Shown: positions 23,748 through 51,603, counted from the first letter of the stretch. The stretch is DNA of 64,000 nucleotides from Nitrospinaceae bacterium (GCA_965223665.1 OZ245011.1:2080001-2144000); one strand, 5' to 3'. Translations and numbers: made by a program. The notes: generated by a model not told the origin, from the sequence alone.

Positions 23748-23852
23748 TTAGGAATCAAAATATACTTAGAGGGGAGATTATTTAACTCATTTTATTTTTC
23801 CTGGGGAGGAAAACCGCATGAAGCAGTCACTTAGTTTTTTCATAGGAATCAT
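23711..23852 (+). repeat. 142-bp perfect direct repeat (second copy 25155-25296)
   Basis: Base-by-base identity from TGACTGGGTC to AGGAATCAT, spanning gene end, intergenic region and next gene start. Confidence 0.9.
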
Positions 23853-25191: not shown

Positions 25192-25261
25192 TTAGGAATC
25201 AAAATATACTTAGAGGGGAGATTATTTAACTCATTTTATTTTTCCTGGGGAGGAAAACCGC

Positions 25262-26542: not shown

Positions 26543-26690
26543 CTTTTTAAAAATACTGGCCAGGGTTTCTCGTGACCTACGTTAAATAAATGGGTATACA
26601 AACACACATCAACTGAAACTTTAGTTAGCCATCAATATTTTTTGAGGGGAGATTTTAAATCCATTTTATTTTCCTGGGGAGGAAAACCAC

Positions 26691-28266: not shown

Positions 28267-28454
28267 CGAACATGGGTCTCCGTTTTTCTATTGGGTTTGT
28301 TTGTGAAATAGCCATTAGTTATGCAAAGATCTCTTTGTGAAGGGGGTTAGGGGGATTTTACCTCCAGAGGTTTTATGTTTTCTGACTTATGCAATGGTCG
28401 CGTTTCAGAGGGGAACTTTTTAACTCATTTTATTTTCCTGGGGAGGAAAACCGC

Positions 28455-29837: not shown

Positions 29838-30018
29838 TTCTATAAAACATGCCTTGAAAGGATTCGAGGTAATTCATGGTCAAGGCAACAGGGACGTTCT
29901 TTGGCCGTGAAACTGTTTTTATCATCTTAATTTTTAATCAAATTTTCAGAGGAGACCTTTGCATAACAGTAACTATGGAACAAAAAGCAATGGATATAAA
30001 AGAGGAAGCTGATGTTCG

Positions 30019-30051
30019 CCCTCTTTCTTAAAGAGGGTCGGGGTGATTCAC
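30019..30051 (+). repeat. REP/MITE-like repeat copy
   Basis: CCCTCTTTCTTAAAGAGGGTCGGGGTGATTCAC. Confidence 0.8.
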
Positions 30052-30146
30052 CGCCAGGGGTTTTATGTTTTCTGACTTATGCAATGGTCGCGTTTCAGAG
30101 GGGAGATTTTTTAACTCATTTTATTTTTCCTGGGGAGGAAACAAGC

Positions 30147-31415: not shown

Positions 31416-31899
31416 TACTTTAATAAACAGTTTCGTTCCGGGTGGTTCCACCACCCGGTTGCGGAAGCGGAGGCCGTTGGCATTTCCTACCCATCGGCCC
31501 AAAATCTGCAATTTTTAATATAACAAACATGATCCTTTCCGATATTTTCTTTTGAGTAATCTCAATCCTAGTTTGTCTAAAAACAACTATATTTTTATCT
31601 GAAAAATAATTATAAACCAAGACTCCTTTCCGAAAAGCTGCTGAAAACCCTTCTTCTTCAGTCCATACTCGCCACCTGTTTCACCCCCCTTTTGAACCAT
31701 TACATTCATGACCGGTTAGAATTCCATTTGATTTTTTCGAGCTAAGGATATTTCCGGTTGCTCACCGAATGTGACAAGTTTCGTCACTTGACAGACCTGA
31801 TTCGGTATGAGTAAATACGGGTCCACTTCATTGAATACATTCAGGTTTCAAACCGTTGACCCTATATTTTTTTATATTTATTTTCCAAGGAGGAATAGC

Positions 31900-33183
31900 A
31901 TGAAACGAGTGTTTAGTTTATCGATGGGATTGGTAATACTGTTGACGAGTGTATCTGCATTTGCGGTGACGGATACATTTTTAACTACCAACGATAGTGA
32001 ATTGAGAGACACTTCTCCCACGCGAAATTATGGGAGCAATCCACTTTTTTTTGCCGATGGGGTGAACCAGGACGGAGACGCCAACGGAGTCTATGGAGAA
32101 GTCGTTGCTATCGTAAAATGGGATATTTCCTCCATCCCCGCCAACGCCACCGTGACGGGAGCTTCAATTACCTTTAAATATGCAGACGCCAGTTCGGGTC
32201 CCTATTATTTCTATTCACAAAATTCGCCCTGGACCGAAAGTACGGTTACCTGGAATGATATGGATCAAGGCCCGGTCATTTTGGGCTCTGTCGCTCCCTT
32301 CACCTTTGGAGTCGGGACCAGTGTGCTCAATGCAGACGGAATCGCCCTGGTACAAAGTTGGGTCGATGGTTCGGTTAATAATAATGGAATTTTAATTCGT
32401 AATAGTGATAACAATAACGGTATTTCCATGGAAGCTCACAATCAGGGAGGAATGGCCGGTTCCTTGGAAGTCACTTATACTGTAGATGATCAACCGACCC
32501 TGGAAAGCCTGCAGGCGGAAATCAACCGGCTCAATAATATTTTGGCCGGAGTGAAGCGCATTAACGACGACATTTTCTTTGATGGAGTGAATGTTTATAT
32601 TCGAAATGGTCTGGGTGCCACTAATGGAAATCCGGACGATCCCATTAATGGTGCACCTGGAATTGCTCAGGTAAATGGACTTGGAAATTTAATTGTGGGA
32701 TATAACCTGGAAAATGATGTCATTCCCTCCGATAGATCTGGTTCTCATAATATTGTTTTGGGAGACGCTCACAGTTATACCAACTACGGAGGGATGGTTA
32801 CTGGATTTCGAAATCTTGTATCCGCTCCAAATGCTATGGTTATTGGAGGAGTAAACAATATTGCCGATGGACATCATTCATTTATCGGGGGTGGAACCAG
32901 CAACAAAACAATGGGCGGTTATTCAAACATTTCCGGGGGTTCTGGAAATACAGCAAATGGAGATATGGCAAGCATTTCAGGCGGATCCGGCAATCAGGCC
33001 AATGGCAACACCTCTTTTATTGGTGGAGGCAGCCAAAATACAACCAATGGATTTAATTCTAATGTAACAGGAGGACGAAGAAACATCGCTGACGGTAACT
33101 ACTCAACTGTCAGTGGCGGGGCGGACCGAACCGCCGCAGGCGAGGATGACTGGGTTGCCGGGAGTTTGTTTGAAGATTTTTAG
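31900..33183 (+). CDS. DNRLRE/SxSGG-repeat protein, paralog 7 (more divergent)
   Basis: ATG 31900 with AGGAGG SD; ends DWVAGSLFEDF. Confidence 0.85.
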   Translation: MKRVFSLSMGLVILLTSVSAFAVTDTFLTTNDSELRDTSPTRNYGSNPLFFADGVNQDGDANGVYGEVVAIVKWDISSIPANATVTGASITFKYADASSGPYYFYSQNSPWTESTVTWNDMDQGPVILGSVAPFTFGVGTSVLNADGIALVQSWVDGSVNNNGILIRNSDNNNGISMEAHNQGGMAGSLEVTYTVDDQPTLESLQAEINRLNNILAGVKRINDDIFFDGVNVYIRNGLGATNGNPDDPINGAPGIAQVNGLGNLIVGYNLENDVIPSDRSGSHNIVLGDAHSYTNYGGMVTGFRNLVSAPNAMVIGGVNNIADGHHSFIGGGTSNKTMGGYSNISGGSGNTANGDMASISGGSGNQANGNTSFIGGGSQNTTNGFNSNVTGGRRNIADGNYSTVSGGADRTAAGEDDWVAGSLFEDF

Positions 33184-33386: not shown

Positions 33387-35234
33387 TCAACTCTGGCAGT
33401 GGGTGTCTTTAAACTTGGTTAAGTCTTTTTTCAGGGAAAATTGTTTTTTAATCTTTTCGGCTTCCGTTAGAATTTTGCATCCTTGTTCTGAGGATGAATG
33501 ATCAAAAAGATGAATGGAGTACAGGAGTAACATATTCATCAGGTAATTCTTATAGGGTTCGGGATTGGTTTTAATTTCAGTTCGCAGAAGCCCTAAGGTT
33601 TCATCATAGGTTTTATTGACGGCGTCCACCCTATCTAACTTCTCGTAAACCTCTAACATGGCGGTTAAGGTCGTTATGACTTTCGAGGTAAACACCGTCG
33701 GGTTAATTTCCTTCAACTGTTTAAAAATACTTAAGGCTTCCTGATAGTTTTCAACAGCAGGTTCCAGTTTTCCCTGCTCCTGATAAAGAAGACTTAAAGT
33801 TGTTAATGTGCTGGCCAGATAATTGCCGAAAGCCGGGAAGTTTTTCTCGGCCAGGTTTCTATAAATTTCCAGGGACTGTTTATAATACGCTACACTCTTT
33901 TCATATTGTTTCAAGACCTGGTGAAGCAATCCCAGGTTTCTTAACGTGGACGCATACTCCAATCCATACGCCCGGTTCCTCTCGTAGAATTCTTCATAAA
34001 TTTCCAGCGCCTGGTTAAACTTCTTTGCGGCCAGCTCATTTTTTTTATTCTCAATATAAAGGTGCCCCAGGATATTGTTGATCTGACCGCGATTGGCCGA
34101 AGAAATCAATTTATTCTCTACCTCTTCGTTTTCTTTCAAGGCTTGTTTTAATTTTTTTTCTGACGCTTCAAACTGCTTATCATCCTGAAAAGTAATACCT
34201 AAATCCACCAGGGAAGCAACGACAAAAGGTTGAAACTTTTTCTTGTTTTTTGTGACTAGAAACTGTCGCAACTTTAGCGATTGCTCGAACTGAGGTTTTG
34301 CTTCCTCTATTTTTTTTTCTGCACGGTAGAGCTTCCCCAAATTTTCAAGCGTGTTCGAAATAATTCGCTTTTTTTCGATTCCATTGATTTGGAGTTTCTT
34401 TTTTATTTCTAATGCCGCGAGTAAATGGGACTCCGCTTTTTTGAACCGATTGGTATCCCGGTAAACCATGGCAATATTGTTCAAGGCTTTCGCTAGAGGA
34501 TAATTGTAATCTTCAGGTTTAGATTTGGCCCGGTTGCGGTAAGTGAACAACACTTGCTCATAGTTTTCTTCTGCTTTTTTATACTGTTTTTGCTGATAGT
34601 AAACCTTCGCTAAAGAAAACACATAATCCAGCTTGTCGGGATCTAAATTACTGGCCTTTTTATATTCGGTGAGGGCCCGCAAGGGGTTGAACTCCAGCTC
34701 GTGCATTAACCCTCGCGAATAATAAATAGAAGCCAGCTTTTTTTCTTCTTTCAATGCAAGTTCATCTAATATGTGCCGTGCTTTTTTAAATTCTCCCGCT
34801 TCCAGAAACTGGCGGGCTTTCTCCGCCATAGCATCGGACATTCCGGAAATTTGCAATTGATTATTCAGGGAATCAAATTTTTCTTTCCATTTATTGGCTT
34901 CTTCAATTTTTTTCTCCAGGGAAGAAAACTGCTCTTTTAATATTTTATTGAGCTGAACTAAAGCTTTGGGAGGCAACCCGGAGCAGTCGATATTCACATC
35001 GCCTTTGACTTCATTAATAATGGGACTACAGTCCCCATAAGTGGTCTGAGATTGGCTGGCAACTTTTTCAGGGAAATGAAATTGTAGAATTACGAAAAAA
35101 CCAAGCAGCAGGGCACGCGCGAGCGAAAAACCATAGCATTGCCCTGAATGTTTAAGGGCAGGCTCACCAGGTTCAGGAAAATCAATAAACCTTTTAAACT
35201 TTAATCTAATACTTCCCATCCTGCACTCATTCAA
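33387..35234 (-). CDS. Exported/anchored TPR protein with N-terminal motif A, coiled coil and TPR array
   Basis: Hydrophobic ALLLGFFVILQF, then TYGDCSPIINEVKGDVN, then AKALNNIA/ASTLRNLG-type TPRs; exact start uncertain. Confidence 0.8.
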   Translation of the reverse strand: MNECRMGSIRLKFKRFIDFPEPGEPALKHSGQCYGFSLARALLLGFFVILQFHFPEKVASQSQTTYGDCSPIINEVKGDVNIDCSGLPPKALVQLNKILKEQFSSLEKKIEEANKWKEKFDSLNNQLQISGMSDAMAEKARQFLEAGEFKKARHILDELALKEEKKLASIYYSRGLMHELEFNPLRALTEYKKASNLDPDKLDYVFSLAKVYYQQKQYKKAEENYEQVLFTYRNRAKSKPEDYNYPLAKALNNIAMVYRDTNRFKKAESHLLAALEIKKKLQINGIEKKRIISNTLENLGKLYRAEKKIEEAKPQFEQSLKLRQFLVTKNKKKFQPFVVASLVDLGITFQDDKQFEASEKKLKQALKENEEVENKLISSANRGQINNILGHLYIENKKNELAAKKFNQALEIYEEFYERNRAYGLEYASTLRNLGLLHQVLKQYEKSVAYYKQSLEIYRNLAEKNFPAFGNYLASTLTTLSLLYQEQGKLEPAVENYQEALSIFKQLKEINPTVFTSKVITTLTAMLEVYEKLDRVDAVNKTYDETLGLLRTEIKTNPEPYKNYLMNMLLLYSIHLFDHSSSEQGCKILTEAEKIKKQFSLKKDLTKFKDTHCQS

Positions 35235-35284
35235 TCAATAATGAGTTTTTTAACGAAACCAATAGGAGAAAGAGTTTTTTTGGG

Positions 35285-35665
35285 TTAATCTTTTGAGTTT
35301 CCGGAGTTCACACTAAAATTAACATCTCCTCCCACCCCTTCAATAATCGGGCTGCTGTCACCATGCGTTTCCTTATTATTGGTTGGGCTGGACACCGGGT
35401 TATTCCCAGCCGGCACACTTCCCGAGTCAGCTGGAGTGGCATTTTGAGTATTGGACGGTTGGGATTTTGCCGCTTCTTTCTGATAAGACAAAGTCATCCC
35501 GCCAAGCAATGCCAGCAACGCCATAAAGTATGCTGCTTTTGGCACCCATCCGGAGCCGCCCGTTTTAACTATCTTGGGCAAAAATATAAAAACCAAAAAC
35601 AGGGCGAACCCCACCAAACCTAAAGGATTGGTAACTATGTCAATCCATTTATCGATACTGGCCAA
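35285..35665 (-). CDS. Two-TM small protein with C-terminal motif A
   Basis: AAGGAG SD, TTG start; TMs PLGLVGFALFLVFIFL and AAYFMALLALLGGMTL; S/P/N/T linker; THGDSSPIIEGVGGDVN. Confidence 0.8.
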   Translation of the reverse strand: MASIDKWIDIVTNPLGLVGFALFLVFIFLPKIVKTGGSGWVPKAAYFMALLALLGGMTLSYQKEAAKSQPSNTQNATPADSGSVPAGNNPVSSPTNNKETHGDSSPIIEGVGGDVNFSVNSGNSKD

Positions 35666-35741: not shown

Positions 35742-37265
35742 TTAATAAAGAAACTTTATACCCGCAGTCGCAATATTTTCCTTAAAATCAACAATCGGAA
35801 AATTTGAAATACTATCAATGTGCTTGTAGCTGATTATAAATTCGAAATAGGTGAACATGTATCTGGACCAGCTGACATCAAAGATATGGCGCTTGTCCAG
35901 ACGATCGGTACCTATAAGAGGCGTAATATTTTTATAGTCACGAATGAAATACGAATAACCAAACTCCAGTTTGCCCTTGAAACAAGTGGGCACCTTTCCT
36001 GCGGTGATAAACTTATGGCCCACAAAATCGAACCGGGGCCCTTCGGTATTTTCTATGACCAGTTCGTATCCCACTTTAAAAGAAGCTTTACCATTATTAA
36101 AGTTTACGCTCTGCGAAATTCCTAACGAATATCTCACCCCGTCTCTGATTTGGTTTATATCACGTAAAAAGTTTTTCAACTGTGTGAGAAAATACAGGTT
36201 CAAATAAAAACTGGGATTGGATAAATCCACCCCCAGTAAATTGAGGTCGGATTTTAAATTGCCTACTTCCCTTCCACCGCTCAGCAGGAAACCATTGGTC
36301 TGAAGGAAACCCGATCCGCCTAAAAAGTTATAATAATAAAGATAATCCAACCCAAAATCGTATTTCCCCGCCTTAAAGTTATTGGAGAAAGTGATCGCGT
36401 GGGTTTGCAAATTAAATTCATTCTCGTCCACGTAGATACTCTGGAAAAAGTTATACTCCACCTCGGAGGAATACTTTCGTTTATCCACAATTCGAACCCC
36501 GCCACCGGCTTCAAAAATAAAAGCGACGTCAGACGCTTGCGATACCAAATCCTGTTCTGAACTGATTAAATTGTCATCGTACTGAACGCTGGAACCTGCT
36601 TCGAACCACCATCTTTTTTTCTTGCGCTTGCCGGTGTGCATGTTCTGAAGATAATCATTTGCCTGTTTCGAAATATCCGATTGAGAATCTAATTGAATGG
36701 CATCGCTGAAACTGACTTTCGCCTGCGCCAGATCTCCGTTTCTAAAATGAAAAATTCCCAGATAGTATAGATAGGGTTGGGTAAACCGGTTGTCCAATTG
36801 CGAGGCTTCCTTTAAGAAAACCATCGCCTGTTGGGAGTCGTCGAGTTTTTTTAAAGTCACCCCTTTATAAAACAAGGCAGAAGCATCTTGAGGATGGTTT
36901 TTTAAATAGAGATCAAATTCTTTCAAAGCGTTTTCAAAATGTTGCGCCTGGTAATTTACCAGGCCCTTTTGAAAACTTAAATCTGAAAGAGACTCATCCA
37001 AAGATTGGGCTTTTTCGTAAGCCTCAATCGCAGCATCATACTTTTTTTGGGATTTGTAGACTTGCCCCAGATAAAAATAGGCGAAGGCATTTTGGGGTTC
37101 TGCTTTAATGATTTGATTGAATATCGCTTCTGCTTCGTTGTATTTCTTATTTTTAAAATATTCAATTCCCTTTTGGAAATCAGGGGCAGAGGGTTCTCCA
37201 TAAGAAATGACTGGAGCCAGTAATATGAGGACCGCTATCTGAATCAATAGCCAGTATTTTTTCAT
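35742..37265 (-). CDS. TPR + C-terminal outer-membrane beta-barrel (Slam/DUF560-like architecture)
   Basis: Signal peptide, TPRs, YDDN motif, alternating beta strands, aromatic C-terminus IKFLY. Confidence 0.75.
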   Translation of the reverse strand: MKKYWLLIQIAVLILLAPVISYGEPSAPDFQKGIEYFKNKKYNEAEAIFNQIIKAEPQNAFAYFYLGQVYKSQKKYDAAIEAYEKAQSLDESLSDLSFQKGLVNYQAQHFENALKEFDLYLKNHPQDASALFYKGVTLKKLDDSQQAMVFLKEASQLDNRFTQPYLYYLGIFHFRNGDLAQAKVSFSDAIQLDSQSDISKQANDYLQNMHTGKRKKKRWWFEAGSSVQYDDNLISSEQDLVSQASDVAFIFEAGGGVRIVDKRKYSSEVEYNFFQSIYVDENEFNLQTHAITFSNNFKAGKYDFGLDYLYYYNFLGGSGFLQTNGFLLSGGREVGNLKSDLNLLGVDLSNPSFYLNLYFLTQLKNFLRDINQIRDGVRYSLGISQSVNFNNGKASFKVGYELVIENTEGPRFDFVGHKFITAGKVPTCFKGKLEFGYSYFIRDYKNITPLIGTDRLDKRHIFDVSWSRYMFTYFEFIISYKHIDSISNFPIVDFKENIATAGIKFLY

Positions 37266-37374
37266 TCCCTATCCTGTAGTTTTCTATCAAAACAAGGAAC
37301 AGGCTTTAAATGCAATTTAATGAAAACTTGAGTTCAAATATTTAAAGCGAGCTGAACCACCTGCGGAAAACAAA

Positions 37375-37785
37375 TTATCTTGCCACCCCTCCACTCCCTG
37401 CAGGTTTGATAGAATCAAAAATATCTTGTCGAATCTGGAGCTTGATATCATTTACAATTTCATTCTTCACATCATCCCGAATACTTTTTTTGATATCATC
37501 CTTGACCGATTCTTTAATGTCCTGATTAATGAGTTCAGGATTTCCCGGTCTGTCTTTTTTTAGAGGTTCTACTTTCTTAATTTCCTCCGGTGCTTGACTG
37601 AACAGCTCAAAGTCTTTTTTTCGAATCGTGTTTCCGGATGATTTGGATATCAACCCATCGTTGGTTTCCAAAAACGAGATATAGTTTTCCGAAGGATTCC
37701 AAACAGGATCGCTTTCTAAAGCAAAGCCGTTTTCAGAGATTCCGAATCCGATAGTACTTATGATGAGCAAAGCGACTATAGGCAT
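37375..37785 (-). CDS. Small secreted protein with periodic charged repeats, paralog B
   Basis: Signal-like N-terminus; IKESVKDD-IKKSIRDD-VKNEIVND-IKLQIRQD. Confidence 0.7.
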   Translation of the reverse strand: MPIVALLIISTIGFGISENGFALESDPVWNPSENYISFLETNDGLISKSSGNTIRKKDFELFSQAPEEIKKVEPLKKDRPGNPELINQDIKESVKDDIKKSIRDDVKNEIVNDIKLQIRQDIFDSIKPAGSGGVAR

Positions 37786-37898
37786 TTTCCTCTCTCCTTA
37801 TATTTCAATTTAAAATTCTTTAAGCCTGTGCGCCAATTTTCTTTATAGAAATGCCTAAACCCACAAAGGACCTACTCTAAAAATACGGATCAGGAGGA

Positions 37899-38318
37899 TT
37901 AGTTTGTTGAAGGGAGCCCATTACCTCCACCTCCTGAAGGTCTTATTGAATCAAAAATATCCTGGCGAATCTGGTTTTTTAAATCCTTGGCAATATCATC
38001 CTTAATATCTTCACGAATGTTTTTCCGGACATCCTCTTTAACCGAATCTTTGATGTCTCGATTGATGGACTCAAGATGACCCGGTCTCTCCTTTTTTAAG
38101 GATTCAATTTTCTTTACTTCCTCAGGAGCCTGACTGAATAACTCAAAGTCATTATTCCGTTTATACATCTGGGAGAATTTGGAAATCGACACCTGATTGG
38201 GCTCTAAAAGCATAATAAAGTTTTCCGAAAACTGGATTCTATTATCCTCTAAAGCAAAGCTATTCTCAGAGAAGCCTAACCCGATAGTACTTATGAACAG
38301 CAAAGCAACTACAGGCAT
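37899..38318 (-). CDS. Small secreted protein with periodic charged repeats, paralog A
   Basis: Start moved to MPVVALL (AGGAG SD) by analogy with paralog B; shared FELFSQAPEE and IRQDIFDSI. Confidence 0.7.
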   Translation of the reverse strand: MPVVALLFISTIGLGFSENSFALEDNRIQFSENFIMLLEPNQVSISKFSQMYKRNNDFELFSQAPEEVKKIESLKKERPGHLESINRDIKDSVKEDVRKNIREDIKDDIAKDLKNQIRQDIFDSIRPSGGGGNGLPSTN

Positions 38319-38480
38319 TTCTACTCTCCTATAAATTTTATGGGAAATTCGATGCACTTATTCGGAATCTTAGCTCAATTAGATCAATGCTGTCAACTAT
38401 TTCGGGCTGAATCCTGAACGCAAAACGTGAGCCGGAAAAATTAAAAACAGACTCGGGATCTATGCGAAAAAAGTAGTTTT

Positions 38481-39280: not shown

Positions 39281-39868
39281 ATGCCATATCATCGAACGAT
39301 TTTATGTTTATTGAGCTCTACCTTACTCGCCACACCTCACGCCGTCGCCGATAACCTGGACCAGGCACAAAAAGCTCTTAATATGATTCAGGAATCCGCT
39401 ATTAAAATGTGCGGAGAAACTTCCACCAAACACACATCGTCTTCTTTAGAACTAAGCGGTAAATCGAAAGCCGAATTAAAAAACCTGATCAGTAAATTGA
39501 TGGGGTTGAAAATCCAGGGAGCCGCCAAATACCAAACCTCAGAATCCGAAGGCGTGCTGCAAAAAGACTTAGCCGGTGAACTCAAGGATACTCGCAATTG
39601 CAGACGCGATCTGTTTCAATCCCTGCAAAAGAAGTTAGTGCCCGACTTGTCTTCCCAATCAGGTAGTAACGGGAATGTCAACGTAGGAGGCAATCAAACC
39701 GGGGATATTAAAGGCAATACCGGAAACATTCGTATCGGCGATTCCTTCGGAGGCGATAAAATCGAAGGCGACAAAATTGTGAAAGAAACACATATCAGCG
39801 GCAATCAGGTCAACCACATTGAAACCAACACCGGCACCATCAACATCGGTGGCATTCCAGACAAATGA
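39281..39868 (+). CDS. Secreted two-Cys domain protein with C-terminal motifs C and B
   Basis: AAGGAGAGG SD; signal ending AVA; GNQTGDIKGNTGNIRIGDSFGGDKIEGDKI then ISGNQVNHIETNTGTINIG. Confidence 0.85.
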   Translation: MPYHRTILCLLSSTLLATPHAVADNLDQAQKALNMIQESAIKMCGETSTKHTSSSLELSGKSKAELKNLISKLMGLKIQGAAKYQTSESEGVLQKDLAGELKDTRNCRRDLFQSLQKKLVPDLSSQSGSNGNVNVGGNQTGDIKGNTGNIRIGDSFGGDKIEGDKIVKETHISGNQVNHIETNTGTINIGGIPDK

Positions 39869-41442
39869 AAAAATCACGGATTGTTTCCTTATATACAAGC
39901 CTGTTCTTCATTAGCCAATGGTTTGGCGGAGTTGCTCCCGTTTTTGCCGTGGAAAATGTCACTCCGGAGAAAAACGAAACTCGGAGTATTTCCGGGAATC
40001 AGGTGAATGTGATTGAAACCAATAAAGGCACCGTTAATATTGGCATTACCCTGGAACAACATCATGCGTACTTGAAAAAACGGGAAAAGGAAATCCGGGC
40101 GGAGTTAGCTCAGGAACGAGGACAGGACAAACAACGCATTCAGGATTTAGAGTTGGAGTTAAAGGGAATTCAGGCGAAGCAGGCCAACCTGGAACAGTCC
40201 TACAAAGAGCGGATTAAACAACTGCAAGCCACCAATAAAGACCTGCAAAAATTCAAAGACCAGTTTTCACCAGAACAAATGGAAAAAGCAGAGGAAGCCT
40301 TAGCCAAAGGTGACTCAACAGAAGCTGAAAAATTATTAAAAGCCGTCACAGAGAACAAAAATAAACTATCGGTGGTCGAAGAGTTGGCATTGGCCCATTA
40401 CCGCTTGGGAAAGATCGCTTATGATGACGTGAAGTACCGTGAAGCCCTGAAAAACTACGAACGCGCCGCACAACTCGCTCCGGAAAGCGGATTATATTTG
40501 AATGAAACTGGAATCCTATACGACACCCTGGGCAACTACGACAAATCCATTGAATATTATCAAAAAGCATTAGAGGTATTGAAAAGTACTTTGGGTGAAG
40601 ATCACCCGAGTGTCGCTACAAGCTGGAACAACCTGGGAGCGGTTTGGCGGGTCAAAGGTAACTATAACAAAGCCATTGAGTATTTTGAGAAATCTTTGGC
40701 AAGCGATCTCAAAACCTTTGGTGAAGACCACCCCAGTGTAGCAATTGGTTGGAACAATATTGCAGATACCTGGCACGCTCAAGGTAACTACGACAAAGCG
40801 ATTAAGTATTTTGAAAAAGCCACCAAAAGTTTAAGTAAATATTATGGTAAGGCTCATCACCAAGTCGCCACCGGTTGGAACAACCTGGGTGAGGTTTGGC
40901 GGAAAAAGGGTGATAACGATAAGGCTTTGAAATTTTTCAAGAAAGCGTTGGCCAGCGATCTAAAAACTTTTGGTGAAAACCATCCCAAAATTGCATATAG
41001 CTGGAACAATCTGGGTGCAGTTTGGCGCGGAAAAGGAAACTTAGAAAAGGCGATTGAATATTTTAATAAAGCATTAACTATTGATATAAATACTTTTGGA
41101 GAAAATCATCCCAATGTTGCACGCGAATGGAACAACCTGGGTCTGACTTATTATTATAAAGGAGACTACGACAAAGCCATTGAGTATTATGAAAAAGCCC
41201 TGGCAAGCGATCTTAAAACCTTTGGCCAAGACCATCCAAGTATCGCCAACATTTGGAACAATCTTGGACAAGCTTGGAATAAAAAAGGTAACAACAACAA
41301 AACTATTTTCTATTATGAAAAAGCGTTGGTGGTTTTAAAGAAATTGTTTGGCAATGATCACTCCAATGTGAAAGTGGTGGAGGACAACATCGCCTTCTCC
41401 CTTGAGCAAATGGAGAAGAAAAATCAATCCACCTCAAAATAA
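39865..41442 (+). CDS. Exported TPR protein with N-terminal motif B, coiled coil and 42-aa TPRs
   Basis: ATGA overlap with the upstream gene; signal ending VFA; ISGNQVNVIETNKGTVNIG; HPxVAxxWNNLG repeats. Confidence 0.88.
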   Translation: MKKSRIVSLYTSLFFISQWFGGVAPVFAVENVTPEKNETRSISGNQVNVIETNKGTVNIGITLEQHHAYLKKREKEIRAELAQERGQDKQRIQDLELELKGIQAKQANLEQSYKERIKQLQATNKDLQKFKDQFSPEQMEKAEEALAKGDSTEAEKLLKAVTENKNKLSVVEELALAHYRLGKIAYDDVKYREALKNYERAAQLAPESGLYLNETGILYDTLGNYDKSIEYYQKALEVLKSTLGEDHPSVATSWNNLGAVWRVKGNYNKAIEYFEKSLASDLKTFGEDHPSVAIGWNNIADTWHAQGNYDKAIKYFEKATKSLSKYYGKAHHQVATGWNNLGEVWRKKGDNDKALKFFKKALASDLKTFGENHPKIAYSWNNLGAVWRGKGNLEKAIEYFNKALTIDINTFGENHPNVAREWNNLGLTYYYKGDYDKAIEYYEKALASDLKTFGQDHPSIANIWNNLGQAWNKKGNNNKTIFYYEKALVVLKKLFGNDHSNVKVVEDNIAFSLEQMEKKNQSTSK

Positions 41443-41450
41443 TTTTTACC

Positions 41451-43175
41451 ATGAACAGAAACCTCATTAAAAAACCAATCATTTTTTCCATAGCTATAGG
41501 CATGGGGTTCGCCATCATCGGGTGGGGATTGCCCATTCCGGTTCACGCTGAAGATAAAGTCAGCCAAGCGGGAAATCAGGCGGGAAATATTTCCGGAACT
41601 CAGGGTGATGTACATGTCGGAGATAACGTCACCGGCGATAAGGTGATGGGAGATAAAATTGGTATCACTCTCGCCGAGCATAAAGCGGAATTGGAAAAGG
41701 AAGTCCAAAAAGTAAAACAACAATTGGAGGCCGAATTTCAAAAAGGAAAACAAAGCGATCAAAAAGAAATTGGATACTTAAAGAGAATTCTGGTTCTCAC
41801 TGAAGGCCGCCTGCAAGATGTCAAAAACGATCTGGAAAAAACCAAAAAACTACTGGCGGAAACTAAAGAAGCCCTGGCGAAACAACCTTCCATACCTAGG
41901 GAACAACTGGCCGAAGCACAGACAAGCTTGAATGAAGGGAAAACCGAAAAAGCCGAAGCGCTGTTTCAACAAACCCTGGATCAAAGCGCCGATACTATCG
42001 AACAAGCTGCCGAAGCCGCATATCAGATTGGACGGTTAGCGGAAAACAAAATCGATTACCGCAAAGCTCTAGAATATTACGAACGCGCCGCACAACTGGA
42101 GCCAGAGAGTGGGAAATATTTAATTGCATTCGGATTTCTATACCGTGCTCTAGGAAACTATAACAAGGCCATTACCTATTATGAAAAAGCTTTAACTAAC
42201 GATCTAAAGATATTTGGTGCAAATCATCCCAACGTGGCCACCGATTGGAATAACCTGGGAGCGGCCTGGAAAGACAAAGGCAACTACGACAAAGCTATTG
42301 AGTATTTTGAGAAGGCAGTGGAAAGCTGGAAAAATTCCTTTGGAATCGAACATACAAATGTCGCCACTGGGTGGAACAACTTAGGATCAGCTTGGCAAAA
42401 CAAAGGTAATCTTAAACGAGCCATTGAGTTTTATGAGATGGCCTTGTCCAGCGATCTCAAAACTTTTGGCGAGAAACATTCAAATGTTGCTCGCGATTGG
42501 AACAATCTGGGAACAGCTTGGGATAGCAAGGCTAACTACGACAAAGCCATTGAATATTACAAGAAAGCAGTCGATAACTGGAAAAATTCCTTAGGAATTG
42601 AACATCCTTTAGTAGCCACAGGTTGGAACAACCTAGGATTGGCCTATGATAATAAAGGCCATTACGACAAAGCTATTGATTACTATGAAAAAGCCCTGGC
42701 CAGCAATCTCAAAACTTTAGGAGAAAATCATCCAGATGTTGCTACCCGCTGGAACAACCTAGGATTAGCCTGGAGCAATAAAGGCCACTATGACAAAGCC
42801 ATTGAATATTATGAGAAAGCAGTAGATAGCTGGGAAAATTCCTTAGGATTTAAACATTCTTTAGTTGCCACCGGTTGGAGCAATCTGGGAGGAGCTTGGT
42901 TTAGAAAAGGGAATTACGACAAAGCCCTGTTGTATTTAGAAAAAGCATTAGCCAGTGATTTAAATAATTTTGGACAGGACGATCTCAAAGTCGCCATTCG
43001 CTGGAATAACCTGGGAAAGATCTGGAATAGCAAGGGAAATTATGACAAATCCATTACCTATTATGAAAAAGCATTACCAGTTTTTAAAAAAATTTTAGGC
43101 AAGGATCACCCGAATGTGAAAACAGTGGAAAGAAACATCGTTTTCGCGCAAGAACAAAAATCAAAAAATAGATAA
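41451..43175 (+). CDS. Exported TPR protein with N-terminal motif C, coiled coil and 42-aa TPRs
   Basis: Signal ending VHA; GNQAGNISGTQGDVHVGDNVTGDKVMGDKI; same TPR type. Confidence 0.88.
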   Translation: MNRNLIKKPIIFSIAIGMGFAIIGWGLPIPVHAEDKVSQAGNQAGNISGTQGDVHVGDNVTGDKVMGDKIGITLAEHKAELEKEVQKVKQQLEAEFQKGKQSDQKEIGYLKRILVLTEGRLQDVKNDLEKTKKLLAETKEALAKQPSIPREQLAEAQTSLNEGKTEKAEALFQQTLDQSADTIEQAAEAAYQIGRLAENKIDYRKALEYYERAAQLEPESGKYLIAFGFLYRALGNYNKAITYYEKALTNDLKIFGANHPNVATDWNNLGAAWKDKGNYDKAIEYFEKAVESWKNSFGIEHTNVATGWNNLGSAWQNKGNLKRAIEFYEMALSSDLKTFGEKHSNVARDWNNLGTAWDSKANYDKAIEYYKKAVDNWKNSLGIEHPLVATGWNNLGLAYDNKGHYDKAIDYYEKALASNLKTLGENHPDVATRWNNLGLAWSNKGHYDKAIEYYEKAVDSWENSLGFKHSLVATGWSNLGGAWFRKGNYDKALLYLEKALASDLNNFGQDDLKVAIRWNNLGKIWNSKGNYDKSITYYEKALPVFKKILGKDHPNVKTVERNIVFAQEQKSKNR

Positions 43176-43269: not shown

Positions 43270-43722
43270 CTAATCTAAATATTCCTGGTATTTGTCCTGC
43301 TCCCTCGGGAGAGCCATGGCGAGGATGGGGAATGGCGGCATGTCTCGGTTACGGCAAATCCAGTAACTGATGCCATACGAAAGGACATAACCTAAAGCGA
43401 TTCCATATCCTAAAAATCCGATGGCGACGGAAAAGGAACCGGTCGGTCCTAAACGGTGCGCCATGAAAATGGAAAACAGGCAGAGTCCAACGGCAAAAGT
43501 GCTTCCGAGAAACCATCCGGCAAAGGCATACTCTTTGGGAATTCTTTTTTTCCAGATGGGATAGATCGAGGCGAGGATGATCATGTCCGCCATCATCGGT
43601 TCAGAAAACAGAAAGTTGCCGATCCGGTCGACGATCACCGCGGCCAAATGGTTGGCCAGAATGATCACGCCAATTTGTAATGCCAGTCTTAATAAAAATC
43701 CTTTTAATTTTTTCATTTCCAA
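43270..43722 (-). CDS. Multi-TM hypothetical protein, paralog of 47861-48280
   Basis: Shared LQIG, PIW, GWxxGS, GxTGSF, LG(F/Y)GI, SYxxCR. Confidence 0.7.
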   Translation of the reverse strand: MEMKKLKGFLLRLALQIGVIILANHLAAVIVDRIGNFLFSEPMMADMIILASIYPIWKKRIPKEYAFAGWFLGSTFAVGLCLFSIFMAHRLGPTGSFSVAIGFLGYGIALGYVLSYGISYWICRNRDMPPFPILAMALPREQDKYQEYLD

Positions 43723-44898: not shown

Positions 44899-45969
44899 CT
44901 AATGGTCTTCAAATAAAGTACCGGCCCGCCAGTCGTCCCTTCCCGTAGCACTGGCACCCCTGCCTCCACTGATGCTGGAGGAGAATCCACTCGCTGTGTT
45001 TTCTTTGCCTCCGGTGATTGTGGCATAGGGACCTGAAATCACATTTTGTTGGCCGACTACAATACCGCCATAGCTGGAATAATTGTTTCCGTTACCCAGG
45101 ATTAAGTTGTGAGAGCCGGATTTATCGGGTTCAGGTGTTGGATCCATGGCATGTCGACCCCAAACAATATCTTCTCCGTAACCTACAATCAGGTTACCCA
45201 ATCCATTGACGGCAGGATTAGGGTCACAGAGTTCAATAAAAGAGGACCGACAATCAGGATCGCCATTCGTTGCTCCCAGGCCGTTCTCAACATGAATATT
45301 GACTCCTGTGAAATGGATGTCATTGCCATCACGTGTCACACCCGCCAATATAGCTTTCAGTTCATCAACTTCAGCCCGCAATTCTTCGATAGTCATCGAA
45401 CTGCTAGAATAAGTCACCTCCAATCTTGGGATCCTTGTCAAAGATTCTCGAGAATTCATATCAATACCATTGGAGGTTCCTGCGGTGCGAATGGTGATGC
45501 CGTTATTGACAAATCCACCGTCAATCCAGCCTTGCACCATATTCACACCATGTTCATTTAAATTAATCGTGATTTTCCCTAAGCTAAATGCAGGAATGAC
45601 TCCACGCACTAAAGCAGAGCCGGACAAATCACTCCAGTCCACCCTATCTTCATTCCATGGGGTGTTCTGTCGAATAATGTTATAAGCACCACTACTCGAA
45701 TCAAACAAATTCAAGGTAATGGACGCAGCGGTCACAATAGCGTCGGAAGGAATTGATGAAACATCCCATTTAATTAAAGCGGCGACTTCTCCACCGGATC
45801 CATCATTTCCATCTGCCAGCAAAAAATTTTCGTTCCCAAAATTACTATTGGGATCAGACTCACTGATATAACTGTCCTCCACGGCAAAGAATTGATCCGT
45901 CACCGCAAACGAATTGCCAGCTACAAACAGAAGAGTTAAAAATACCCACAAAGCCATTACCTTTTTCAT
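44899..45969 (-). CDS. DNRLRE/SxSGG-repeat protein, paralog 9 (about 2 repeats)
   Basis: ATG 45969 with GGAGG SD; ends DWRAGTLFEDH. Confidence 0.85.
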   Translation of the reverse strand: MKKVMALWVFLTLLFVAGNSFAVTDQFFAVEDSYISESDPNSNFGNENFLLADGNDGSGGEVAALIKWDVSSIPSDAIVTAASITLNLFDSSSGAYNIIRQNTPWNEDRVDWSDLSGSALVRGVIPAFSLGKITINLNEHGVNMVQGWIDGGFVNNGITIRTAGTSNGIDMNSRESLTRIPRLEVTYSSSSMTIEELRAEVDELKAILAGVTRDGNDIHFTGVNIHVENGLGATNGDPDCRSSFIELCDPNPAVNGLGNLIVGYGEDIVWGRHAMDPTPEPDKSGSHNLILGNGNNYSSYGGIVVGQQNVISGPYATITGGKENTASGFSSSISGGRGASATGRDDWRAGTLFEDH

Positions 45970-46218
45970 GATCAGTCCCTCCACTTTGATGTTTTAATAC
46001 CAATAGGAAGATAATTAATTCTTCAATTAAAATATACGGTTTAGATGGATAACTTAATATCGTTGGACCTATATTTTTGCTGTCCTATTTTGTTTTACAT
46101 AAGTGAGGCGCAGAAAGGGTAGAAGAGGAATTTGTGGAAGTTATGTATTAATGGTTAAACCGTGGGATGATCTTACCGGAGATCTTGGAAAAACTAATTT
46201 TCCGGTGGAGGCAAAGCG

Positions 46219-46243
46219 CCCGGCCCTGCATAGCAAGGCCGGG
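46219..46243 (-). terminator. Hairpin downstream of paralog 8
   Basis: CCCGGCC-ctgcatagcaa-GGCCGGG. Confidence 0.55.
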
Positions 46244-46261
46244 TTGAATGAGTGATAAAAT

Positions 46262-47548
46262 TTAATTATCTTGAAACAAAGCACCAGCGACCCAGTCATG
46301 GTTTCCTAAAGCTGTTCGACCTAAGCCACCGCTGACATTGGACATTTGACCATTGGCGGTGTTATTTTGGCCTCCACTAACACTGGAGTAAGCTGCATTT
46401 GCTGAGTTACCTAAGCCGCCACTGATGCTTGTGTAATTTGAATAAGCGGAGTTGCGTAAACCACCACTGACATTAGACCAATTTCCATTTGCAAAATTGT
46501 CACGACCACCACTGACGCTATTGGCCAGCGCTCCGCTGGCTCTATTATTTTCTCCCCCATTGATACTTGAGTGGTTTCCACTGACCATGTTATCTCTGCC
46601 GCCACTGACACTGGAATAGCGACCCGATATCGCATTATCTTGGCCTACCACTAATCCACCAAAACTGGCATAGTTAAGCCCATGGCCGACCACAATATTA
46701 TGTGAACCGGATTTATCTGATATCACAGGTTGGCCATAGCCATCGAAAGGATCAATTTTTTCATCATAACCGACAATCAAATTGCCCAGCCCGTTGACAG
46801 TTCCGGTGGTGCTATCCGGGTCTTCCATATTGCCATTGGTAGCACCCAGGCCGTTTACGATTTTCAAATTCATTCCTTCAAACTGAAGCGTCGTCCCATT
46901 TCGGGTGACTCCTGATAAAAGGTCTTCCAAAAACGCCACGCGTTCGAGCAGATTTTGAACGACGGTGTCATAGGTCACTTCCAAAGTGGGGGGCGGTCCT
47001 GCCGATTCCTTAGAATCCATCATGATGCCGTTGTTGGTACCACCGGTTCGAATGATCAACCCGTTATTGGGAATGGAACCATCCACCCAACCCTGCACCA
47101 AAGCGACGCCGCTGGCATGTAAAACATGGGTCCCTAAACCAAACGTTAAAGGAGGCACGGTACCTAATAAGGTTCCTCCCTGATTAAGATCATTCCAGGT
47201 CACGGAGCCTTCGGTCCAGGCCGTGTCTTGTGAATAGATATTGTAAGTTCCCGAACTGGCGTCGGTATAATTGAAGGTCACCGAAACGCTGGTCACGGTT
47301 GAACCGGCTGGGATTGAAGACACGTCCCACTGAACCAACGTGACGACTTCCCCGAATCTACCGTTATCCGGATCTTGCGAAACTCCGTCGGCAAGGAGTT
47401 CCATTTCGGCTCCATAGTTCATAGTGGGAGAAGTGCTTCTCACATAACTGTCTTCAGGATTGGTGAACGTATCGGTCACCGCCAACGACGGTGTGCTGAT
47501 GCATAACGCCCACAATAAAAACATAGATAACGTTTTTACGAATTTCAT
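46262..47548 (-). CDS. DNRLRE/SxSGG-repeat protein, paralog 8
   Basis: Same architecture; ends DWVAGALFQDN. Confidence 0.85.
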   Translation of the reverse strand: MKFVKTLSMFLLWALCISTPSLAVTDTFTNPEDSYVRSTSPTMNYGAEMELLADGVSQDPDNGRFGEVVTLVQWDVSSIPAGSTVTSVSVTFNYTDASSGTYNIYSQDTAWTEGSVTWNDLNQGGTLLGTVPPLTFGLGTHVLHASGVALVQGWVDGSIPNNGLIIRTGGTNNGIMMDSKESAGPPPTLEVTYDTVVQNLLERVAFLEDLLSGVTRNGTTLQFEGMNLKIVNGLGATNGNMEDPDSTTGTVNGLGNLIVGYDEKIDPFDGYGQPVISDKSGSHNIVVGHGLNYASFGGLVVGQDNAISGRYSSVSGGRDNMVSGNHSSINGGENNRASGALANSVSGGRDNFANGNWSNVSGGLRNSAYSNYTSISGGLGNSANAAYSSVSGGQNNTANGQMSNVSGGLGRTALGNHDWVAGALFQDN

Positions 47549-47860: not shown

Positions 47861-48280
47861 TTAATGTTTTTTTATTTCATCAGGTAATACGGAATACACA
47901 GAGGGGAGTGTGGATAGATTGGGCTGAGTTTTTCGGCGGCATACCAGATAGCTGACCCACAGAGGTAAAAGGAAACCCAAAAGAATTCCAAATCCCAAAA
48001 GTCCCATAGCCAAATTAAAGGAGCCGGTTTTTCCCAAACTGAACGCATAAATCCTTGAACCAAGAAAAACGACCAAGCCAACGGAACTTCCAAAAAGCCA
48101 ACCCAGGAATCGATTTCCTGTAGAAACATTCTTCATCCAGATGGGGAATAGAGAGCCAATGACGACGATATAAACCAGGGTCGGTCCGGAGAAACGAAAA
48201 TCACCGAGGTTGGTACTGACCAGGGCGGCGATTCCAATCGCAATTGCCGTCGCTCCAATTTGCAGTAACAAATTAATCAT
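47861..48280 (-). CDS. Multi-TM hypothetical protein
   Basis: Paralog of 43270-43722. Confidence 0.7.
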   Translation of the reverse strand: MINLLLQIGATAIAIGIAALVSTNLGDFRFSGPTLVYIVVIGSLFPIWMKNVSTGNRFLGWLFGSSVGLVVFLGSRIYAFSLGKTGSFNLAMGLLGFGILLGFLLPLWVSYLVCRRKTQPNLSTLPSVYSVLPDEIKKH

Positions 48281-49989: not shown

Positions 49990-51603
49990 ATGGATAAACG
50001 AATCGAGGGTTTAATTACCAATGCCAAAATGTTGGCATCTACCGGATCCTACCAGGAAGCGATTTCTGTATTCAATCAGGCTATAGAAATTGATCCTACT
50101 AACATCGCCCTTTGGGTCAGCAAAGGCAACACCTTAATCAAAGCGGCCTTATACGAAGAAGCGCTCATTGTTTTCGAAACGATCTTCGTATTGAACCCAA
50201 ATTTCCATCTTCTCTGGAATCCATATCAAAATGAGTTTGTCGAATCTCTTATAGGTATCGATCCTAATGTATCTATTCACTTTCACGAAATAAAAGCCGA
50301 ATCCCTGACTTTAGACAGCTTATTGGAGCTGGTGATCATCAACAAGGTCAAGGAGGACTCGGAAGAAAGTGAGAACGAAGAATCTTCTCCTCCACCGGAA
50401 GACACAAAGGACACACCTGAAGAAAGTGACGACTTGCCAATAATTCCCAAGGAAGATCCTTCCGTTCCCCCTCTATATGTCAACGTCACTAAAGGACCGG
50501 GAAATAAAATAGGCGGCGACAAATTAATGGATGATAAGGTAGGCGAAGATAAGCTGGCCGATGAAAAAAAATTCAGTGGCAATAAACGACCCATCATCAC
50601 TGAAACCGATTCCGACATGAACTACAAAGTCGTTCGCACTTTTTTTGCCACCGATCGCAACCGTACCGAGAAGGACTCACCCAAAGACATGTTTGGGACG
50701 GAACGGTCCAGTCTCACCTACGGCGTGTGCGATGTCAGCATTCCCCGCAATCATACCATCGGAGAGTTGGAGTCACCTTCCATTTTACGGCTGGAGTTTC
50801 GCGAGGATCCGGAAAAACATGTGGTGTTACTAAAAACGGAGGTTAAAGAAAAGGAAGGGTTCTTTGGAGAAATTGCTCAATGCATTCAGGAAGGTAAAAC
50901 CAAAAATGCCTTTCTGTTTGTGCATGGTTACAATGTAACGTTTGAAGATGCCGCAAGAAGAACCGGGCAAATGGCTGCCGACCTCGATTTCGATGGCGCG
51001 CCGGTGTTTTACAGTTGGCCGTCACAGGGGAACTTTCCGTCCTATCTTATCGATTCACAAAACATCGAGTGGGCACAAACCAATCTAAAAAACTTTTTGC
51101 TGGAGTTTTTTGCGGACTCTACCGCTGACAATATTTATCTCATCGCCCACAGTATGGGCAACCGCGGGTTGACACGGGCCTTGATTGCGCTGCTTAAAGA
51201 AAAGCCGGAGTACAAGGAAAAATTAAAGGAAGTGATCCTGACCGCACCGGACATCGACGCCGATGTGTTCAAGCGGGATATTGCCCCCGCGCTTAGCCAA
51301 TCGGGAAAACCCATCACGCTTTACGCCTCTTCCAAGGACAAAGCGTTGATCGCCTCCAAAAAAGTCAACGGCCACCCCCGCGCCGGGGACTCAGGTGAAG
51401 GATTGTTGATCCTTCCCGGAATGGAAACCATCGATGCCACCGGGGTCGATACCGGTTTCCTCAAACACTCCTATTTCGCCGAGAGAAAATCCGTTTTGTC
51501 AGACATTTATTATATTGTCCAAAAAGGAATCCGCGCCGACGACCGCTTCGGCCTCGAACGCAAAGACACCCCCACCGGCCCCTACTGGGAATTTAGAGTT
51601 TGA
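49990..51603 (+). CDS. TPR + acidic/GDK-repeat linker + DUF900-like alpha/beta hydrolase
   Basis: N-terminal TPRs; FFATDR, FVHGYN, YSWPS, IAHSMG, APDID, HSY motifs. Confidence 0.85.
   Translation: MDKRIEGLITNAKMLASTGSYQEAISVFNQAIEIDPTNIALWVSKGNTLIKAALYEEALIVFETIFVLNPNFHLLWNPYQNEFVESLIGIDPNVSIHFHEIKAESLTLDSLLELVIINKVKEDSEESENEESSPPPEDTKDTPEESDDLPIIPKEDPSVPPLYVNVTKGPGNKIGGDKLMDDKVGEDKLADEKKFSGNKRPIITETDSDMNYKVVRTFFATDRNRTEKDSPKDMFGTERSSLTYGVCDVSIPRNHTIGELESPSILRLEFREDPEKHVVLLKTEVKEKEGFFGEIAQCIQEGKTKNAFLFVHGYNVTFEDAARRTGQMAADLDFDGAPVFYSWPSQGNFPSYLIDSQNIEWAQTNLKNFLLEFFADSTADNIYLIAHSMGNRGLTRALIALLKEKPEYKEKLKEVILTAPDIDADVFKRDIAPALSQSGKPITLYASSKDKALIASKKVNGHPRAGDSGEGLLILPGMETIDATGVDTGFLKHSYFAERKSVLSDIYYIVQKGIRADDRFGLERKDTPTGPYWEFRV

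Follow-up and report, generated by a model that had tools for sequence, protein, structure and literature searches.

We analysed a 64,000-nucleotide stretch of DNA from a Nitrospinaceae bacterium (GCA_965223665.1 OZ245011.1:2080001-2144000; hereafter the window, with positions counted from its first letter) and describe in it a plus-strand locus in which a small protein shares short glycine- and asparagine-rich motifs with two adjacent tetratricopeptide repeat (TPR) proteins. Its three open reading frames (ORFs) lie where an earlier reading by a model given only the DNA (the sequence-only reading) had placed them. ORF1 (39281..39868, 195 aa) has a signal peptide, followed by a conserved helical domain that contains two conserved cysteines, and a disordered tail that carries the motifs; ORF2 (39865..41442, 525 aa) comprises a signal-peptide-like segment (aa 1-28), one repeat unit, a helical domain and TPR_12 repeats; and ORF3 (41451..43175, 574 aa) comprises a signal-peptide-like segment (aa 1-33), one unit of the type called R1 below, a stretch of the GDK type, a helical domain and TPR_12 repeats. 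A Shine-Dalgarno sequence, AAGGAG, stands 7 nt upstream of ORF1, the ORF1 stop overlaps the ORF2 start (ATGA, a TGA stop and an ATG start) and 8 nt separate the ORF2 stop from the ORF3 start. Because of the overlap, the 8-nt gap and the collinear arrangement on one strand, ORF1-ORF2-ORF3 look like a single operon. Among RNA sequencing runs, none is listed as containing the locus.

Shared motifs and domain make-up of ORF1, ORF2 and ORF3

The tail of ORF1 holds two 19-residue repeats, R1 (39683..39739, aa 135-153, VGGNQTGDIKGNTGNIRIG) and R2 (39794..39850, aa 172-190, ISGNQVNHIETNTGTINIG), joined by an 18-residue linker of the GDK type (39740..39793, aa 154-171, DSFGGDKIEGDKIVKETH). R2 corresponds to the motif B of the sequence-only reading, which had matched it to the mature N-terminus of ORF2, and R1 is the first half of its motif C, matched to the N-terminus of ORF3. 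Both matches are real. Motif B is identical at 16/19 residues (40/57 nucleotides) between ORF1 and ORF2, and motif C at 16/30 residues without gaps (54/90 nucleotides) between ORF1 and ORF3. When the mature N-termini of the TPR proteins were shuffled with their composition kept and compared by ungapped BLOSUM62 score, the motif B score of 81 (shuffles: mean 26.8, standard deviation 4.8, maximum 56) and the motif C score of 98 over 34 residues (mean 28.8, standard deviation 5.1, maximum 57) were each reached by 0/5000 shuffles. Nei-Gojobori-type counts gave proportions of synonymous (pS) and nonsynonymous (pN) differences of 0.78 and 0.16 for motif B and of 0.75 and 0.30 for motif C; since synonymous sites are saturated while pN is low, these counts indicate that the match is kept at the protein level, as had been proposed, under purifying selection and not through recent gene conversion.

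The unit on ORF2 (39988-40044, aa 42-60) is of the R2 type and stands directly before GITLEQH, while that on ORF3 (41565-41621, aa 39-57), of the R1 type, is followed by a GDK stretch running to aa 70 (to 41660) between the unit and GITLAEH; it is this GDKVMGDKI stretch after the ORF3 unit that the ORF1 linker matches. Two separate motifs had been ascribed to ORF1, and both are present, though they are not unrelated: R1 and R2 agree at 10/19 positions, a score reached by 0/20000 fixed-register shuffles, and motifs B and C of ORF1 are diverged pseudorepeats of one 19-residue unit with the pattern xxGNQxxxIxxNxGx[IV]x[IV]G. R2 shares 16/19 residues with the ORF2 unit, and R1 shares 8/19 with the ORF3 unit and 13/19 each with the units of a caspase-like protein and of protein 1842269, both encoded elsewhere in the genome. 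The layout is thus one of two pseudorepeats on ORF1 and a single unit on each of ORF2 and ORF3. A complex prediction combining ORF1 125-195, ORF2 29-100 and ORF3 34-110 scored 0.02 against a mark of 0.34; it was run without controls and is evidence neither way.

The helical domain of ORF1 (about aa 24-120) follows a signal peptide of aa 1-23, with cleavage expected at AVA|D. ORF1 has no match in Pfam, NCBIfam or PADLOC and no usable match in the ESM Atlas. A database search returned nine relatives (P0002-P0010, E 2e-17 to 6e-8) with a common segment of ~95 residues, in which C44 and C107 are nearly invariant; signal-peptide-like starts are seen in 6/9, the remaining three being truncated, and the C-terminal parts of the nine are mutually unrelated. 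A metagenome scan added 26 loci with an ORF1-type domain, and in the 13 of these that were inspected a signal peptide and the ORF1-type domain are followed by a C-terminal domain that varies; the gene contexts of the 13 are unrelated, and no TPR neighbour was seen by eye. AlphaFold2 models ORF1 as helices, with a predicted local distance difference test (pLDDT) score of 85-90 for aa 61-100 and of 79-89 to aa 120; the tail, aa 127-195, scores below 50 and is predicted to be disordered as a monomer. Fold searches with the N-terminal domain returned generic helical bundles only, the best Foldseek match having E 0.9 and the best VIA match, to a VANGL2 segment, a Z of 8.7 that falls within the range common for helical bundles.

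In ORF2 the helical domain covers about aa 61-170, with TPR_12 repeats from there to the end, and in ORF3 about aa 71-190, again followed by TPR_12 repeats. Pfam recognises no families other than TPR in these two proteins (TPR_12 at 1e-86 and 1e-74, respectively) and no nucleoside triphosphatase (NTPase) in ORF1, ORF2 or ORF3, in agreement with the absence of such a domain noted earlier; NCBIfam and PADLOC gave nothing specific for the three, PADLOC returning generic TPR, caspase and TIR models only. The AlphaFold2 model of ORF2 1-220 (38-sequence alignment; pLDDT 83, predicted template modelling score 0.74) has a beta-hairpin inside the motif (48-52/55-59, pLDDT 54-67) and then helices at 63-83, 89-128, 136-147 and 152-163 (pLDDT >90) that lead into the TPR repeats, and a fold search with the same segment found TPR folds only. 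Both TPR proteins had been described as continuing from the motif through GITLxxH into a coiled coil and TPRs. The GITLxxH continuation and the TPR_12 repeats are there in both, whereas the coiled coil of ORF2 is modelled as shorter helices and may correspond to the helical domain rather than to one long coil.

Recurrence in the genome and in the wider family

Across this 4.35 Mb genome (G000; 20,490 six-frame ORFs), a phmmer scan recovered about 20 members of the family of helical-domain TPR proteins, hereafter the helical-TPR family (paralog E 1e-40 to 1e-49), and blastp-short queries with the motif segments matched almost exclusively this family and its partner proteins. Motif B is present in three proteins only and a further motif, A, in two, which are adjacent to each other; the motif C query found five other proteins at E <=4e-4 (six with ORF1), and its weaker matches all lie within the family. 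Comparison of the N-termini of 29 TPR_12-like ORFs with their neighbours within 7 kb yielded five pairs that match through the motif only: ORF2-ORF1, ORF3-ORF1, 1896134-1895626, 2058743-2057052 and 1685339-1683329. Protein 1895626, which we call the hub, has 162 aa, one membrane helix and three different units (motif A, an R1-type or C unit and an R2-type or B unit), and adjoins its TPR partner 1896134, which has a signal peptide and two A-type units (G000:C1:1895626-1897561; L002:4627-6562). In an exported-type caspase pair (G000:C1:2057052-2060854; L001:10053-13855), 2057052 consists of a signal peptide, motif C, a helical region and a Peptidase_C14 domain (5.8e-19), with a sub-threshold NCBIfam match to 'caspase_w_EACC1', and 2058743, whose gene overlaps it by 4 nt, of a signal peptide, motif C, a helical domain and TPRs. 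The fifth pair, 1685339 (TPR) with 1683329 (NACHT, 1.8e-11), is cytoplasmic.

A second motif-sharing pair, independent of ORF1-3, lies in the window itself, on the minus strand at 33387-35665. It is formed by a 126-aa protein (35285..35665), in which a K-rich loop joins two hydrophobic helices and motif D (35318-35398, THGDSSPIIEGVGGDVN) stands at the C-terminus, and by a 615-aa TPR_12 protein (33387..35234), which has a hydrophobic segment at its N-terminus and continues with a copy of motif D between two cysteines (34992-35072, TYGDCSPIINEVKGDVNIDC), a helical region and TPR_12 repeats (Pfam 1.7e-39). The two D copies agree at 13/27 positions, with a score of 63 (shuffles: mean 20.2, standard deviation 3.6, maximum 38) reached by 0/2000 shuffles. 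Because the loop between its helices is positive, both termini of the 126-aa protein would lie outside. A query with the N-terminus of the 615-aa protein did not find it in a sister genome, which holds, by eye, a cytoplasmic pair of a 184-aa protein and the TPR protein P0011. Paired sharing of the motif between neighbouring genes, which had been put forward as a check on the locus, therefore recurs at several further loci within the same genome.

Beyond this genome, a profile of the ORF3-type helical domain matched 412 representatives at E <=1e-3, 85 of them at <=1e-10, among 1.84 billion proteins. We surveyed the N-termini of 151 proteins (150 matches listed and P0012), of which 126 were evaluable and 25 had no N-terminal region to judge. 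Among the matches listed, a hydrophobic segment precedes the helical domain in 88 of the 126 evaluable proteins and is missing from 38; 68 of these segments fall within the first 40 residues and 20 are internal, and the spacer before the helical domain has a median of 27-29 residues, is typically G/N/T/V-rich and ends in ..NIG|ITLEQYE. The charge bias of the internal helices in this set favours N-in (15 vs 3 C-in), and the TPR repeats would therefore lie outside, while that of the early segments is ambiguous (31 N-in, 26 C-in, 11 ties). ORF2 and ORF3 match the helical-domain profile and carry, after the hydrophobic segment, a beta segment of ~28 residues that ends in ..NIG|ITLE.., as in the rest of the family. 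A widespread proteobacterial layout seen in P0012, P0021, P0028, P0033 and P0039 consists of a TIR domain, one membrane helix, a beta segment of ~28 aa, the helical domain and TPR_12; it is found as stand-alone genes also at loci L027-L029, L031 and L046, and PADLOC TIR-like models match 3/4 of the TIR-TPR proteins tested. The layout resembles that of Toll-like receptors, in that the membrane lies between the repeats and the TIR domain.

The surroundings of the locus hold paralog expansions of their own. Paralogous secreted CBM96 proteins with C-terminal SGG/N-rich repeats flank it (28389-33183 and 44899-47548); Pfam confirmed CBM96 for five window proteins, the test covering 28389-33183, the others were judged by eye, and ORFs of similar length lie at 22557-28013. 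By N-terminal sequence, CBM96-like proteins also adjoin the paralogous hub locus (G000:C1:1898184-1900957 and 1735932-1737416). Downstream of ORF3, two CBM96 genes are bracketed by paralogous small multi-pass membrane proteins of 150 and 139 aa (43270-43722 and 47861-48280, minus strand), with no family match for either. In the 537-aa protein at 49990-51603, which weakly matches the GDK motif queries, an N-terminal TPR region is followed by an acidic linker, by a stretch of GDK-like sequence (KIGGDKLMDDKVGEDKL) and by an alpha/beta hydrolase domain of the DUF900 family (1.2e-44). On the minus strand at 35742-38357, a 507-aa protein with a signal peptide, TPRs, a weak TPR_Slam match (E 0.0014) and a C-terminal region ending in ..IKFLY may form a barrel in the outer membrane; adjoining it are two small secreted proteins, paralogous to each other, whose C-termini repeat a D-[IV]-K-rich sequence. 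Elsewhere in the genome (G000:C1:1727436-1733799; L006) there is an apparent ternary system of iSTAND, MoxR-type AAA and 1381-aa TPR proteins, whose iSTAND protein begins with GDIVGGDKIGGDKVAGDKV repeats.

Compartment, coupling and rival explanations

Signal peptides were judged by hydropathy and by eye. The helical-TPR family of this genome splits into 10 members with an N-terminal hydrophobic segment (Kyte-Doolittle >=2.07) and 11 without (<1.5). By eye, a positive n-region, a hydrophobic core and an AxA-like site are present in 7/7 motif-bearing proteins of exported type (ORF1, ORF2, ORF3, 2058743, 2057052, 1842269 and 1896134). The predicted cleavage sites across the seven are AVA|D, VFA|V, VHA|E, AFA|Q, VNA|Q, ALA|D and GHA|E, with a small residue at -1 and -3 in all and usually P or G 4-6 residues upstream, and in each of the seven the motif starts within 15 residues of the predicted site. 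Cleavage would fall after aa 28 in ORF2 (VFA|VE) and after aa 33 in ORF3 (VHA|ED). The signal peptides that had been proposed for all three proteins are thus seen as signal-peptide-like N-termini, from which ORF1-3 are predicted to be exported. The cysteine pair of ORF1, the cysteine pairs that bracket the beta segment in the clearly signal-peptide-bearing relatives P0047, P0122, P0130 and P0097, and TPR_12 paralogs with a lipobox (C1:2048238-2054762) agree with an oxidising compartment, or at the least indicate that this organism exports TPR_12 proteins.

The sharing of the motifs and the selection on it, its recurrence, the domain make-up of the proteins and their hydrophobic N-termini are established. 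For ORF1-3 we infer export, physical association, switch-like or amyloid behaviour and a biological role, and the two-input, one-output switch of the sequence-only reading is of this kind too. We tentatively read the three, at slightly less than an even chance, as an extracytoplasmic, NTPase-free system coupled through homotypic beta-motifs by the logic of BASS/HET-s and of effector-associated adaptors. The proteins would leave the cytoplasm by way of Sec-type signal peptides. Once these are removed, a single G/N-rich beta unit of 19 residues would lie exposed near the new N-terminus of ORF2 and of ORF3, directly ahead of the helical domain and the TPR_12 array, and ORF1 would be a small periplasmic protein whose disordered tail offers an ORF3-like unit, R1, and an ORF2-like unit, R2, with the 18-residue linker between them. 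Like units would associate homotypically by beta-hairpin or beta-arch stacking, so that when a TPR protein oligomerises, for example on ligand binding, its clustered units could draw in the corresponding ORF1 unit or serve it as a template, and either TPR protein would be coupled to the ORF1 helical domain. At the paralogous loci, the partners coupled to exported TPR proteins by the same wiring would be small membrane proteins and a caspase-like protease that is likewise exported, which suggests an envelope-level conflict or defence function. Three features speak for a BASS/HET-s-like mechanism, namely the two-plus-one repeats, the disorder of the ORF1 tail and the fact that partners are small membrane proteins or a protease. 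The most economical account that our analysis suggests is that the beta unit is the homotypic association element of the helical-TPR chassis, which in this lineage has been copied onto partners (membrane proteins, a caspase, a NACHT protein and ORF1) and would there act as an adaptor.

Several observations weigh against this reading. Where paired co-occurrence of the motif in homologs had been proposed as a test, it failed outside this lineage, at 0/12 evaluable loci in other taxa: among proteobacterial relatives of the chassis, 0/8 evaluable of 23 loci (evaluable meaning that the anchor pattern is present) have a motif-sharing neighbour, with best neighbour scores of 25-33 vs control maxima of 37-70, and among signal-peptide-type relatives 0/4 loci analysed of 7 have one. 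Because chassis relatives elsewhere are without such a neighbour, the beta segment may be mainly a self-association element. A query with ORF1 did not find the operon in 40 related genomes; among 41 genomes it matched two, its own and that of a same-genus relative (G001), the latter in the N-terminal domain only. The homologs of that domain bear unrelated C-terminal domains in unrelated contexts, and Foldseek and VIA gave it no recognisable effector fold, its likeness to Bell or HeLo having been judged without a Bell profile or structure. Partner specificity within the operon is not evident either. Adjacent copies are closest to each other for the NACHT-TPR pair (84% identity, best non-self match) and for motif A, and they are not for ORF2 and ORF3, the best non-self match of whose units is the hub 1895626, 224 kb away (17/19 and 20/30 vs 16/19 and 16/30 for ORF1). 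Because the distant hub outmatches ORF1 for both units, the pairing does not appear to be strictly operon-specific.

A stronger form of homotypic coupling, which we consider unlikely, is a periplasmic immune switch with prion-like templating. Exported TPR proteins would sense envelope threats and oligomerise, their units would form a beta-solenoid seed, and the seed would convert partner units, so that membrane helices cluster into pores, the exported caspase is activated or the ORF1 domain is engaged; hubs with more than one unit, such as ORF1 (two) and 1895626 (three), would combine the input of several sensors. Were this so, it would be the first case of amyloid signalling that takes place outside the cytoplasm and needs no NTPase. 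A serious rival, possible but on balance doubtful, is that the units provide constitutive docking and no signalling at all, the small proteins (ORF1, the 126-aa protein and 1895626) being anchors or scaffolds that permanently tether TPR proteins of the signal-peptide type by beta-sheet augmentation; this would split in two what is widespread as a single chain of membrane helix, beta segment, helical domain and TPR. Across the family at large, the beta segment does lie ~28 residues past the membrane helix in the same chain (in 88/126 evaluable proteins, among the matches listed), and in this genome a cleavable-looking signal peptide takes the place of the anchor at just those loci where the unit is also found on a small membrane or periplasmic protein encoded next door. 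Two of the four exported-type partners, moreover, consist of membrane helices only and have no further domain, and the Cys-bracketed hairpins of relatives hint at a defined fold and not at open-ended templating, both of which also call for caution about a BASS/HET-s-like mechanism. What docking leaves unexplained is the presence of several different units on ORF1 and 1895626, the occurrence of the same kind of unit on a caspase and a NACHT NTPase, and the predicted disorder of the ORF1 tail; the two-plus-one repeat layout is the one described for templating systems.

We regard it as improbable that ORF1-3 are cytoplasmic or membrane-inserting, through latent helices like those of HeLo, Bell or Bab or through internal starts, and form an ordinary cytoplasmic BASS-like pair. 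Close paralogs with 52-65% identical helical domains do lack a hydrophobic segment and begin directly at the motif, Bab has a predicted N-terminal hydrophobic helix, the charge bias of the early segments is ambiguous as noted above, and in-frame alternative starts follow the hydrophobic segments of ORF2 (GTG, codon 29) and ORF3 (TTG, codon 27), which tells against export, though no well-spaced Shine-Dalgarno sequence was seen for either codon. A cytoplasmic location is at odds, however, with the positive n-regions and AxA-like sites seen by eye in 7/7 exported-type members, with the ATGA coupling, because of which the ORF2 start is placed upstream of the hydrophobic segment, with the conserved cysteine pairs and signal-peptide-like starts of unrelated metagenomic homologs of the ORF1 domain, and with the N-in bias of the internal-helix relatives, which puts the TPRs outside. 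Very improbable, finally, is the absence of any interaction, with the shared units being relics of shuffled domains or partial duplications in a variable genomic island whose paralogs evolve fast. The region is indeed rich in paralog expansions (CBM96, TPR_12, small membrane proteins), the operon is lineage-specific and the units cluster partly by protein class and not by locus; against this, the peptide is conserved while synonymous sites are saturated, the unit alone is common to otherwise unrelated proteins, always at a terminus, and four unit variants (A, B, C and D) each pair with an adjacent gene.

If ORF1-3 are exported as their N-termini predict, motif wiring would operate in the periplasm of a marine nitrite-oxidiser lineage, where the partners coupled to TPR proteins would be membrane proteins, a protease of caspase type and a new helical domain, and amyloid or adaptor signalling would reach a new compartment. 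Even under constitutive docking, the units would represent a new modular way to assemble envelope protein complexes. The four or more natural motif pairs offer a compact set for tests of specificity and cross-talk, and the large uncharacterised family of membrane-anchored TPR proteins, some of them TIR-fused, may sense across the membrane.

Comparison with known systems

To our knowledge, motif-templated signalling (HET-s/NWD2, RHIM, BASS, Bab/Agp) is known only inside cells, mostly downstream of NTPase receptors. The sequence-only reading did not recognise the arrangement at this locus as described, and in the literature as far as its accessible text extends (including PMC12261475 and PMC13506858) we likewise found no periplasmic or secreted amyloid-signalling pair; the supplementary tables of the BASS papers may list cases. 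Periplasmic sensors of conflict systems are predicted in PMC10907252, in the accessible text of which motif pairs are not described.

The BASS/HRAM systems (Bell-NLR, HET-S/NWD2) share with ORF1-3 a G/N-rich, beta-prone motif at the C-terminus of a small helical protein and the N-terminus of a repeat receptor, the receptors including ones with TPR repeats, and partner genes that are adjacent, collinear and overlapping or nearly touching. ORF1-ORF2-ORF3 have the shared terminal motif in adjacent, collinear, closely spaced genes, and they have C-terminal pseudorepeats on the small protein, two in ORF1 and sometimes two to three in BASS pairs, and a single N-terminal copy on the receptor; the layout of a two-repeat effector and a one-repeat receptor is described for HET-s and BASS1/6 by Dyrka et al. 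(2020 preprint). They have neither an NLR-like STAND NTPase receptor (NB-ARC or NACHT, by Pfam) nor, by their signal-peptide-like N-termini as judged from hydropathy and by eye, the cytoplasmic location of the known systems. The preprint of Ibarlosa et al. (2024) identifies Bab/Agp as BASS11, reports the predicted hydrophobic helix of Bab and describes Agp as a receptor that can work without an NTPase domain, a point of likeness to ORF2 and ORF3. Further differences are that the ORF1 domain is not recognisably Bell or HeLo and that ORF1 matches two distinct receptors through two diverged repeats. BASS motifs are reported from filamentous Actinobacteria and Cyanobacteria, whereas ORF1-3 come from Nitrospinaceae.

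Curli form the nearest extracytoplasmic analogue. In curli, CsgB templates CsgA at the cell surface, and strand-turn-strand repeats of ~20 residues rich in G, N and Q are common to both. The likeness lies in the extracytoplasmic setting and in an anchored protein and a partner that share such repeats, and motif A of the paralogous locus 1896134/1895626 reads QxGxGNxA, which we take to be curlin-like. A curli assignment was nevertheless rejected, since Curlin_rpt (PF07012) has no match in the ORF1 tail or the ORF2 and ORF3 N-termini at E up to 10 and none genome-wide at E <=0.01; it appears sub-threshold in the paralog 1896134 only (E 0.098, 13.1 bits vs a cut-off of 20.7). The csgEFG genes are absent from the locus, with CsgG-like matches only at C1:1648891-1653706, about 470 kb away, and the partners of ORF1 are TPR proteins with one unit, not fibre subunits. 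By these searches curli are excluded as the family of ORF1-3.

The effector-associated domains (EADs) and Death-like adaptors of Kaur et al. (2020) resemble the present system in that a small module is carried by a core protein and by adjoining stand-alone partners and homotypic coupling is proposed; caspase, NACHT, iSTAND-MoxR-vWA and TPR components occur with the motif in this genome. Some EADs are alpha-helical and comparable to Death-like domains, whereas the unit of ORF1-3 is a 19-residue beta-prone peptide, and the passages on the periplasm in that paper concern other components. The unnamed helical-TPR family itself differs in that its members in Proteobacteria stand alone without a motif-sharing neighbour, and the unit copied onto partner proteins is seen only in this Nitrospinaceae lineage. 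The logic of the wiring is therefore known, and it is the predicted compartment, the multi-unit hubs and the helical domain of ORF1 that are new.

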